IMG/VR virus record: IMGVR_UViG_2706794698_000005
Reading direction: 5' to 3' (one strand)
Source: a virus
Lineage: Duplodnaviria > Heunggongvirae > Uroviricota > Caudoviricetes
DNA length: 4,464 nucleotides
Below are positions 3,001 through 4,464 of this stretch, piece after piece. Position 1 is the stretch's first letter, and every line of letters starts with the position of its first letter. The position numbers were made by a program.

Positions 3001-4464
3001 CGCTCCCTCATCCTCTGGACAGAACGTGGCGCAGCCCGTCACGCCAAAATGCTCGAAACCGATCAGGCGTGGGAAGTGTTCGAAAAACTGGAAGACTGTT
3101 ATTTCAACCAGAAACAGCCACCAGCGGCACAAAACACATCTATCGAAAATGATGGATGCGCATTACTGAGCCACTTCGATAAACACGGTCAGGTTGAGTT
3201 CACGGAAAAGGTACCCGCCGATGCGATGGTATGTACTCTGGAACGGTTTAAATTTTATCTGGAGCAACANNNNNNNNNNNNNNNNNNNNNNNNNNNNNNN
3301 NNNNNNNNNNNNNNNNNNNNNNNNNNNNNNNNNNNNNNNNNNNNNNNNNNNNNNNNNNNNNNNNNNNNNNNNNNNNNNNNNNNNNNNNNNNNNNNNNNNN
3401 NNNNNNNNNNNNNNNNNNNNNNNNNNNNNNNNNNNNNNNNNNNNNNNNNNNNNNNNNNNNNNNNNNNNNNNNNNNNNNNNNNNNNNNNNNNNNNNNNNNN
3501 NNNNNNNNNNNNNNNNNNNNNNNNNNNNNNNNNNNNNNNNNNNNNNNNNNNNNNNNNNNNNTCAGTTGGTCAGAGCGAGCGACTCATAATCGCCAGGTCG
3601 CTGGTTCAAGTCCAGCAAGGGCCACCAACCACCACTAGCTCATCCGGATAGAGCATCAACCTTCTAAGTTGACGGTGCGAGGTTCGAGTCCTCGGTGGTG
3701 GGCCAGCGCCGACTTAGCTCAGCAGGCAGAGCAACTGACTTGTAATCAGTAGGTCACCAGTTCGATTCCGGTAGTCGGCACCATATGCGGGCATCGTATA
3801 ATGGCTATTACCTCAGCCTTCCAAGCTGATGATGCGGGTTCGATTCCCGCTGCCCGCTCCAGCGAGATTTGAGACGAAGGTTGTTATTTGCACTGACACA
3901 ATATTGTGTGGGAATGTCTGACTCCTTACCATCTCCTGTTCTGTGATGTTGTTTTGTTGCAGTTCCAGTGCTCTTTTTTCAGCACCAGAATGGTGCATTG
4001 TCGGTCAGGTTACGTAGTGAACCTCTGGCAGGGGACTGATGATTCATCATTCTGGTGTTGTAAATATCTCTTCGGACAACTTACAAAATATTCTAAGCAA
4101 ACCCCGGGAACACACTCTTAACTGCCTTGGCTGGCGGTTTTTTGTACAGCGCTCGGTATGTGTGAGCTGGAAATCAGATTTTGCATGGACTGGAATCATG
4201 CTGTTATTTAGGGGCGAAGAACTGGCTTTTTCTTCCGCCTTCTCACCAGTAACGATTAGAAAAATAATGAAATGCCCCCCTCCGGGGAGGAGGACCGTAG
4301 AAAAAAGGACCCGCCAGCAAAAACATTGGGGATGAACAGCTTTCGCTACTCAGATTGCTGGCGGGTAAAGTTCCTCATGAATTAAGAATGCTACGCGATC
4401 TTTTTTAATGGAAATGAAAATTATTGTCAATTAGTCGTGCGTGTTTTTTCATACAATATTGGTA

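Follow-up and report, generated by a model that had tools for sequence, protein, structure and literature searches.

Lambdoid phages have been known to carry tRNA genes between the antiterminator gene Q and their lysis or toxin genes since the 933W record (GenBank AF125520). The region studied here raises the question of what such genes do for their carrier: whether they supply the phage with decoders for its own codons, replace host tRNAs destroyed by defence nucleases, serve the lysogen, or are simply carried along. We analyzed a stretch of 4,464 nt from a Caudoviricetes genome in IMG/VR (IMGVR_UViG_2706794698_000005), referred to as the window throughout. An initial annotation, made from the sequence alone, had described a tightly packed four-tRNA array in it. 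The cluster is real but ordinary, being shared by numerous lambda-like prophages in E. coli and Shigella, and we regard it as probably a self-contained tRNA operon of an E. coli/Shigella lambdoid prophage that supplies tRNAs for codons overused by the phage.

A compact array of four tRNA genes

Four tRNA genes lie head to tail on the plus strand at window positions 3551-3861, in the order tRNA-Ile2 with anticodon CAU (3551-3627), tRNA-Arg with UCU (3629-3705), tRNA-Thr with UGU (3708-3783), and tRNA-Gly with UCC (3787-3861). They are separated by spacers of 1 nt (A), 2 nt (GC), and 3 nt (TAT), and all four encode CCA at their 3′ end. A run of masked bases at 3270-3561 hides 11 nt at the start of the Ile2 gene (3551-3561), leaving only 3562-3627 readable, and this mask-cut gene scores 28.9 bits against the Rfam tRNA model (RF00005; gathering score 29 bits). 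An IMG/VR contig that agrees with the window at 100% identity wherever the latter is unmasked (L084, a twin that came from an IMG/VR pattern scan only) carries the complete gene at 3796-3872, equivalent to window 3551-3627, with anticodon CAT according to ARAGORN and 70.5 bits. Because the twin has the complete gene at the matching place, the previously proposed array start at 3551 is correct.

All four genes exceed the gathering score (70.5 bits for Ile2 on the twin; 56.4, 69.8, and 64.9 bits for Arg, Thr, and Gly), and all four are called by ARAGORN (Ile2 on the twin, the others in the window). Their anticodon loops (CUCAUAA, CUUCUAA, CUUGUAA, and CUUCCAA) each comprise 7 nt with U33 and a purine at position 37. 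RefSeq labels a 100% identical array (H66) as tRNA-Ile, tRNA-Arg, tRNA-Thr, and tRNA-Gly. The packing, the encoded CCA, and the four anticodons were thus described accurately by the initial annotation, and its statement that the array decodes only A-ending codons holds for the Watson-Crick cognates but is too narrow, since U34 lets a tRNA read the corresponding codons ending in G as well (AGG, GGG, and ACG). Folding the individual tRNAs by minimum free energy was uninformative, and a promoter-like match at 3775-3802 was discarded because it falls within the Thr and Gly genes, the D-arm of glyT providing its TATAAT.

Origins of the individual tRNAs

The CAU gene belongs to the tRNA-Ile2 type related to ileX and is not an elongator tRNA-Met, as judged by comparing gene bodies: it is 96% identical to 933W ileZ and 90% identical to K-12 ileX, versus 69% to metT/metU. 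Its acceptor stem contains the pairs C4-G69 and C5-G68, which we take to be determinants for TilS.

The Arg gene in slot 2 is built on a phage-specific argN scaffold with a C1-G72 acceptor pair, and is 79% identical to 933W argN, 84% to a same-slot gene of E. coli UMNK88 labelled tRNA-Lys, and 73% to host argU. Its anticodon loop equals that of argU, as do the D-loop GGAUA and G73, whereas the stem of its anticodon arm differs entirely from argU. The two remaining genes are of host origin. Thr matches K-12 thrU at 74 of 76 positions, with an identical anticodon arm and with U-to-C changes at D-loop positions 16 and 20 only (window 3723 and 3727), and Gly matches K-12 glyT at all 75, which bears out the previous impression of a host-identical Gly copy beside a Thr copy altered in the D-loop.

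Slots 3 and 4 also keep the order of the host thrU-tyrU-glyT-thrT operon, and the Thr-Gly pair resembles a thrU-tyrU-glyT stretch taken from the host with tyrU deleted. Unlike the host operon, the array contains neither tyrU with its two spacers nor thrT or tufB, and it has a 3-nt junction in addition to the two D-loop changes in Thr.

Genomic context, promoter, and terminators

The array sits between the Q gene and the lysis genes. Q occupies 1881-2267 on the plus strand (Pfam PF06530, Phage_antitermQ; E = 2e-52) and is directly followed by a candidate late promoter found by promoter scan (TTGACC-18-TATATT; 2272-2301, plus strand) in the position of pR′ in the 933W record. An Rfam match to isrK begins at 2308, and the transcript of the pR′-like promoter would begin with this isrK-like RNA. 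Downstream, a sequence (L001) that carries on from the 3′ end of the window at 99.8% identity has holin, lysozyme, and Rz genes behind the array.

A pT-type sigma-70 promoter (TTGCAG-17-TATTAT) is predicted at 3512-3541 on the plus strand; it is masked in the window, and its coordinates derive from the twin (3757-3786). The promoter scan reported it shifted by one base (TTTGCA-18-TATTAT) in the twin at 3757-3786 and in L001 at 8951-8980. Across 96 arrays led by Ile2, 87 have TTGCAR-17-TATNWT exactly 9 nt before tRNA position +1, with 11 different spacer sequences, and both hexamers are invariant in our alignment (A1). The same element is labelled 'pT; putative tRNA promoter' in AF125520. Since the array thus appears to own a conserved promoter, it would not need to wait for Q. 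The initial annotation was right to place the array downstream of the Q-controlled late promoter, as Q and a pR′-like promoter precede it, but transcription would not depend on that promoter alone.

The unit is flanked by predicted intrinsic terminators on the plus strand. The upstream one (3437-3465; masked in the window and placed from twin positions 3682-3710) consists of an 8-bp stem followed by a T-run and ends the preceding ORF6N gene; an equivalent hairpin stands ahead of pT in most arrays. The first one 3′ of the array was found by terminator scan at 4120-4146, and its equivalent aligns in UMNK88, phage PhiR47_1, and 933W, whose record marks a terminator after argO. The 258-nt trailer in between gave no Rfam match and a folding z-score of only −1.55 when examined for a structured small RNA, and that idea was rejected.

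Distribution and relation to known arrays

Among 5,426 complete E. coli genomes, 603 (~11%) carry a four-gene array of the same layout, already annotated, a share small enough to show that the array is dispensable. The window as a whole, which is mosaic and masked, had no single match of at least 80% among complete E. coli genomes. In 85 complete arrays the 1/2/3-nt spacing does not vary, and it is retained, together with intact cloverleaves, in most of 120 sampled copies. The exact haplotype is present three times in S. flexneri SFBU1023, and related arrays are found in many non-invasive E. coli, e.g., ETEC and poultry strains. Some copies are visibly decaying, as in L099, where three tRNA genes out of four (Arg, Thr, and Gly) are damaged.

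Among the closest described relatives is the pT-ileZ-argN-argO module of 933W, whose features we took from its GenBank record and which lies between Q/pR′ and stx2. Both modules are located downstream of Q, share pT with identical hexamers and spacing 9 nt before +1, and have terminators on both sides; their first genes are 96% identical (ileZ) and their second-slot scaffolds 79% (argN). Unlike 933W, however, the window has UCU rather than UCG in slot 2, a host-derived Thr(UGU)-Gly(UCC) pair in place of argO, spacers of 1-3 nt where those of 933W measure 9 and 13 nt, and an isrK/C4/ORF6N module between pR′ and the array, and its array is followed not by a toxin gene but by the trailer, the terminator, and then the lysis genes. 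Neither slot 2 (60% identity) nor the thrU-like slot 3 (71%) is a counterpart of argO. By sequence comparison, the array is thus a cargo variant of the 933W module and not the same array.

Also related are the Ile2-Lys(UUU)-Thr-Gly arrays of UMNK88 and PhiR47_1, which share the four slots, the 1/2/3-nt spacers, the Thr-Gly pair, and pT, with 85–94% identity over the array. They differ in slot 2, where UUU is accompanied by an unusual C33, an A-C mismatch in the T-stem, and U73, whereas the window gene combines a canonical U33 loop with G73 and a fully paired T-stem. The slot-2 anticodon varies among phages in general (UCG, UCU, UUU with C33, and rare others): arrays without argO(UCU), like that of the window, have UCU in slot 2, and those of the 933W type have UCG in slot 2 and UCU in slot 3, a pattern that speaks for codon supply.

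At the same place downstream of Q, tRNA genes are also found in SfI, Sf6, ST64T, PS3, P21, and the Stx2f phage phi467, but their sets are limited to Asn, Thr, or Thr-Gly, one or two tRNAs each, and lack the ileZ- and argN-type genes. For the first five, an ACA bias has been reported, with Thr(UGU) matching the over-use of ACA by the phage (PMC3636060). Phage phi467 has a Thr-Gly pair as in the window (PMC7366253; H25), and tRNA sets between q and stx are subtype-specific (PMC7366253).

Codon use in an array-carrying prophage

Building upon the proposal that these tRNAs favor rare codons, we ranked 59 codons by the phage/host ratio of their synonymous fraction. The phage sample came mostly from a prophage (VL40) whose upstream genes differ from those of the window; the two have in common only the array and the late region behind it (99.8% identity). 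The host sample comprised 56 genes only. Across the annotated coding sequences of this prophage, the highest ranks were held by AGG (1), AGA (2), AUA (3), CGG (4), GGA (5), ACA (6), and GGG (7), which places the four cognate codons AGA, AUA, GGA, and ACA at ranks 2, 3, 5, and 6 of 59 and supports a role in rare-codon supply. Its late genes gave a similar order (AGG 1, AGA 2, CGG 3, AUA 4, GGA 5, GGG 6, ACA 7), as did twelve ORFs of the twin contig (AGA 1, AGG 2, AUA 4, ACA 6, GGG 7, GGA 9). Expressed as odds ratios against the host, the enrichment of the cognate codons is 1.9- to 4.1-fold among late genes and 3- to 8-fold among early ones (Fisher p from 1e-4 to 3e-16).

The expected enrichment in late genes was thus borne out, whereas the assumption that these genes are AT-rich was not: the late structural genes have a GC3 of 0.584, compared to 0.560 in the host sample. 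The rank test makes the match look more specific than it is, as any weakly biased DNA acquired horizontally should show some enrichment of host-rare codons. Two further enriched codons, CGG and CCC, have no tRNA in the array; the host-rare CUA shows no enrichment in the ORFs of the twin, and the array has no matching tRNA. Enrichment is also stronger in the early genes and an ipaH moron than in the late genes. Early genes would gain only if pT worked ahead of Q.

Weighing codon supply against other roles

From the computed gene calls, homology, promoter and terminator conservation, position, and codon match, we infer the following course of transcription, processing, modification, charging, and translational benefit. 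The array would be transcribed from its own sigma-70 promoter, starting about 2–3 nt ahead of the first tRNA, and after induction Q-modified RNA polymerase from pR′ would read through it as well. RNase P would cut the tetracistronic precursor at each 5′ end, and host exonucleases would trim the 1-3 nt trailers to the encoded CCA. Host enzymes would then modify and charge the tRNAs, with TilS placing lysidine on the CAU tRNA. The added tRNAs should enlarge the pools of four scarce decoders (for AUA, AGA/AGG, ACA, and GGA/GGG), whose codons are used two to five times more in prophage than in host genes.

The main beneficiary might instead be the lysogen, if constitutive pT activity raised minor-tRNA pools for AT-rich acquired virulence genes such as ipaH or other Shigella/EIEC effectors. 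A predicted Q-independent promoter and the three copies of the exact haplotype in S. flexneri SFBU1023 speak for this, as does the ipaHd gene carried by the array-sharing VL40 prophage, with a GC3 of 0.464 and the four codons enriched 4- to 10-fold by odds ratio, although this is one gene with small counts. Given how common related arrays are in non-invasive E. coli, and that copies are decaying in some prophage remnants, we consider lysogenic conversion unlikely. Degenerate copies would equally suit a passive passenger, i.e., captured host and phage tRNA DNA that is short, harmless, and without selected function, serving as a homology patch for recombination of mosaic modules. Such a passenger would account for Thr and Gly being host copies, for a TAT spacer made of the first base after thrU and the last two before glyT, as a tyrU deletion predicts, and for the break at ~100 nt upstream of the array, where the window and VL40 cease to be similar. 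It also agrees with a study in which the tRNA sets serve to mark captured regions (PMC7366253). It sits poorly with promoter hexamers and a distance to +1 that are conserved despite varying spacers, with the retained gene spacing and cloverleaves, and with an anticodon set that fits the phage's most over-used codons, and we hold it to be very improbable. The idea of an integration-site remnant or tRNA-dependent lysogeny was rejected, as the array of the VL40 prophage lies mid-element, ~18 kb from the integrase gene adjoining ttcA.

The initial annotation had also raised the possibility that the array replaces host tRNAs cut by anticodon nucleases, which would here include P2 Old, PARIS AriB, PrrC, and colicin D, so that the lytic cycle is completed. 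There is precedent: P2 Old excludes lambda and kills mainly by cleaving host tRNA-Thr(UGU), from which phage tRNA-Thr(UGU) genes rescue (PMC12445682), and the tRNA-Lys of T5 neutralises PARIS (PMC11464382). The window shares the nuclease-target anticodon through its Thr(UGU) gene. The slot-2 scaffold is phage-specific, with an anticodon stem unlike argU and an anticodon that changes among phages, and rare Thr alleles have altered anticodon stems (G42U/U43C in VL40; a compensated GAUGA/UCAUC stem in L113). Rescue tRNAs, however, are distinguished by changes in the anticodon stem-loop, and resistance to Old needs an altered CNG motif plus a shortened stem, with an extra host thrU giving little or no protection (PMC12445682). 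In the window, all four anticodon loops match those of the host, which argues against nuclease evasion; the Thr arm, equal to that of the sensitive host tRNA, retains both CNG motifs and a 5-bp stem, and the Gly gene is wholly glyT. The Arg arm departs from argU in the stem and not in the loop, which could be read either way. The host anticodon arm is likewise present in 117 of 119 sampled Thr copies. The window copy thus lends the replacement idea no support, and we judge this role quite unlikely.

A related reading, to which we assign a similarly small chance, is that the pT array is an arms-race locus besides supplying codons, with the window copy representing its unarmed, host-like state. 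Three observations fit it. The argN scaffold in slot 2 is repeatedly re-targeted, yielding the anticodon series described above; some Thr(UGU) alleles have dropped the CNG motifs, or shortened the stem, on which P2 Old depends; and both host-derived tRNAs, Thr(UGU) and Gly(UCC), bear the paired CNG motifs and A37 that mark Old substrates. The VL40 Thr allele is weakened as evidence of selection, since the same 3′-stem change occurs in the decaying L099 array, whose Arg and Gly genes are also damaged.

Implications

As a discovery the array matters little, its exact sequence being already labelled in RefSeq, and rare-codon supply is an established hypothesis (PMC3636060), which here passes a direct codon-rank test. 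The additions are modest: a conserved promoter that the array seems to possess for itself, the apparent capture of Thr-Gly with loss of tyrU, and the switching of the slot-2 anticodon among phage lineages. The last could merit a targeted experiment, given the work of 2024–2025 on tRNA-cleaving defences. If the arms-race reading is true, the pT locus would be a place where lambdoid phages, long-standing targets of P2 Old, evolve counter-measures in the form of tRNAs.

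A lambdoid array of four tRNA genes

The window carries four tRNA genes on the plus strand between 3551 and 3861: tRNA-Ile2 (CAU; 3551–3627), tRNA-Arg (TCT; 3629–3705; Rfam 56.4 bits), tRNA-Thr (TGT; 3708–3783; 69.8 bits) and tRNA-Gly (TCC; 3787–3861; 64.9 bits). The last three are complete in the window and were called by ARAGORN; the Rfam tRNA gathering score is 29 bits. The Ile2 gene is cut by the second of two N-masked runs (2647–2904 and 3270–3561), and its readable part (3562–3627) alone scores 28.9 bits. We therefore completed it from L084 which, together with L082, is an IMG/VR contig recovered in a scan for the Thr-3 nt-Gly junction and 100% identical to all unmasked window segments. 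The complete gene in L084 (3796–3872; anticodon CAT; 70.5 bits) corresponds to window 3551–3627, so that the array coordinates of the initial annotation are exact. Mask length is no guide to true length: the two masks comprise 258 and 292 N, against 245 and 255 nt at these places in L084, so that window coordinates inside them are approximate. The spacers (only 1, 2 and 3 nt) also agree with the initial description, as does the encoded CCA of every gene. An array with 100% identity is labelled tRNA-Ile, tRNA-Arg, tRNA-Thr and tRNA-Gly in RefSeq (match H66).

Three main array types have pT and ileZ in common: Ile2-Arg(UCG)-Arg(UCU), as in phage 933W; Ile2-Lys(UUU, C33)-Thr-Gly; and Ile2-Arg(UCU)-Thr-Gly, the type of the window. 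Among 120 listed IMG/VR contigs with the Thr-Gly junction, at least 51 carry the Lys type, at least 34 the window type and at least 17 Thr-Gly only, with odd slot-2 loops in at least 8. The 1/2/3-nt spacing is invariant in 85 of 85 complete Lys- and Arg-type arrays among the matches listed. Among complete E. coli genomes, 603 of 5,426 contain 80% or more of the 311-nt array, ten of them at ≥99% identity. S. flexneri SFBU1023 and E. coli ECMA0423 carry the exact Arg-Thr junction, and with it the exact array haplotype, in three copies each (L133–L138).

Identity and possible origin of the tRNAs

By sequence similarity, the first gene (96% to 933W ileZ, 90% to K-12 ileX and 69% to metT/metU) is predicted to encode a tRNA of the Ile2 type, not Met. 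The second gene is built on a phage-specific scaffold whose first pair is C1-G72 (84% to the same-slot 'tRNA-Lys' of E. coli UMNK88, 79% to 933W argN and 73% to host argU). It matches argU in the anticodon loop CUUCUAA, the D-loop GGAUA (A20) and G73. Arginyl-tRNA synthetase recognizes A20, C35, U36 and A/G73, and the argU-matching positions make the predicted Arg identity plausible. The Thr copy matches thrU at 74 of 76 positions, and the D-loop differences that the initial annotation had noted are U16C and U20C, the only two present. Its view of the Gly copy as host-identical likewise held (75/75 to glyT). The Thr/Gly spacer TAT equals the first base 3' of thrU plus the last two bases 5' of glyT, which is consistent with capture of a host thrU-tyrU-glyT segment and later loss of tyrU, three bases being weak evidence.

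The second slot also shows variation between prophages. Its argN-like scaffold (window 3629–3705; L002 3067–3143; L132 3206–3282) keeps the C1-G72 acceptor stem and the D and T arms while the anticodon varies: mainly UCG (933W type), UCU (window) and UUU with a non-canonical C33, and rarely GCA, UCC and GCG variants or 5–6-nt loops. The 'Lys' form is further marked by U73 and by an A-C mismatch in its T-stem.

Promoter and genomic surroundings

A TTGCAG-17-TATTAT element lies 9 nt before the tRNA +1 of the array (one-base-shifted in the promoter scan, as TTTGCA-18-TATTAT; L084 3757–3786). TTGCAR-17-TATNWT was found at exactly this distance in 87 of 96 sampled Ile2-led arrays, among which the sequence between the hexamers occurs in 11 versions (alignment A1). 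The homologous 933W element is annotated 'pT; putative tRNA promoter' in its GenBank record, where terminators flank the pT-tRNA unit and pR' and qut lie further upstream; the array thus shares with 933W its own pT-type promoter and flanking terminators. From the conserved hexamers and distance and the 933W annotation, the predicted layout is terminator, pT, tRNAs, terminator, inside a Q-dependent late transcription unit. The array would be transcribed from pT and, by Q-dependent read-through, from pR' as well.

Upstream, genes for a DnaB-type helicase, RusA and the Q antiterminator (PF06530) are followed by a pR'-like site directly 3' of Q (TTGACC-18-TATATT; 2272–2301), Rfam matches to c4-a1b1 (2295–2347), isrK (starting at 2308; 77.5 bits) and C4 antisense RNA (2410–2493; 71 bits), a partly masked ORF6N-domain gene (2905–3269 readable) and an intrinsic terminator that is masked in the window (L084 3682–3710). 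Together with Q, the isrK/ORF6N module that directly follows it (L084 2567–3606) has the same order as antQ-isrK-orf45-anrP of Salmonella Gifsy-1 (PMC4825925), here joined with P1-type C4 immunity RNA elements in the interval from pR' to the tRNA array. The isrK-like RNA may be no more than the short terminated transcript of pR'. Further upstream, 293 nt (L084 1251–1543) comprising the 3' end of the helicase gene are missing from the window at 1248/1249, and their absence fuses the helicase ORF, out of frame, to the reading frame that follows. L084 and ten further related loci in the comparison all have these nucleotides. The gap reflects either a genuine deletion or the excision of a segment.

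Downstream, a 258-nt non-coding trailer (3862–4119), for which an Rfam search gave no match, precedes terminators starting at 4120. It travels with the array (in other prophages it is 85–87% identical as far as about window 4068), contains a long imperfect hairpin (about 3979–4061) and, as a whole, has a folding z-score of only −1.55. L001, the locus of the VL40 prophage, continues the 3' end of the window at 99.8% with holin, lysozyme and Rz, then head and tail genes. The VL40 prophage, which has the array and the late region in common with the window, is integrated beside ttcA and carries the type III secretion effector gene ipaHd and IS600 (L129 17339–19090). With the three-copy haplotype of SFBU1023 and ECMA0423, this makes a Shigella/EIEC-type genome the probable source of the window.

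Rare-codon supply and tRNA replacement as proposed functions

The initial annotation offered two explanations for the array: supply of tRNAs for rare codons, or replacement of host tRNAs depleted by nucleases. For the former, we ran the codon comparison that the initial annotation had set as its test, using annotated genes of the VL40 prophage and 56 host genes (K-12 and VL40). All four cognate codons are enriched in late genes (odds ratios: AUA 2.65, AGA 4.09, ACA 1.88, GGA 2.25; p = 1e-4 to 1e-7), in early genes (5.45, 8.05, 3.14 and 2.95; p = 2e-8 to 3e-16) and in ipaHd (10.5, 7.6, 4.2 and 5.2; p = 1e-6 to 3e-3). When the 59 degenerate codons are ranked by the phage/host ratio of their synonymous fraction, the top codons are AGG, AGA, AUA, CGG, GGA, ACA and GGG for the whole VL40 prophage and AGG, AGA, CGG, AUA, GGA, GGG and ACA for its late genes; in twelve L084 ORFs, AGA ranks 1, AGG 2, AUA 4, ACA 6, GGG 7 and GGA 9. 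The chance of four random codons all falling in the top six is about 3 in 100,000 (15/455,126), a figure that overstates specificity, as DNA with weak codon bias is in general enriched in codons that are rare in the host. The array has no tRNA for CGG and CCC, which are enriched, nor for the host-rare CUA, which shows no enrichment. The late genes had been presumed AT-rich, which their GC3 does not bear out (0.584 versus 0.560 in the host sample; early genes 0.475, ipaHd 0.464).

For the replacement of depleted tRNAs, two published cases are relevant. P2 Old excludes lambda mainly via cleavage of tRNA-Thr(UGU) at paired anticodon-stem CNG motifs; rescue by phage Thr(UGU) tRNAs requires an altered CNG motif together with a shortened stem, and additional copies of host thrU protect little or not at all (PMC12445682). 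Similarly, T5 tRNA-Lys evades PARIS through anticodon stem-loop changes (PMC11464382). The Thr anticodon arm of the window is that of thrU (CUG 28–30, CAG 40–42, 5-bp stem), as in 117 of 119 sampled Thr copies among the matches listed, and hence lacks the changes that define a rescue tRNA. With anticodon loops host-identical in all four tRNAs and Gly equal to glyT throughout, nuclease replacement is not supported for this copy, whereas the codon data support rare-codon supply.

Rare Thr alleles elsewhere show the types of change reported for P2 Old resistance (PMC12445682). VL40 Thr(UGU) (L001 9147–9222) carries G42U/U43C, with the loss of two stem pairs and a change of CAG to CAU; in contig L113 the Thr(UGU) stem is GAUGA/UCAUC, fully compensated and free of CNG motifs. 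Decay is as good a reading of the VL40-type change, because it recurs in contig L099, where the array also has damaged Arg and Gly genes. The window Gly (3787–3861), with CAG 28–30, CUG 40–42 and A37, shows the paired-CNG pattern reported in substrates of P2 Old (PMC12445682).

In conclusion, the array is genuine and represents a variant of a lambdoid phage module that is well known. Genes for tRNAs 3' of Q are on record in SfI, Sf6, ST64T, PS3 and P21 (PMC3636060), as are tRNA sets that differ by stx subtype, among them a Thr-Gly pair in phage phi467 (PMC7366253).
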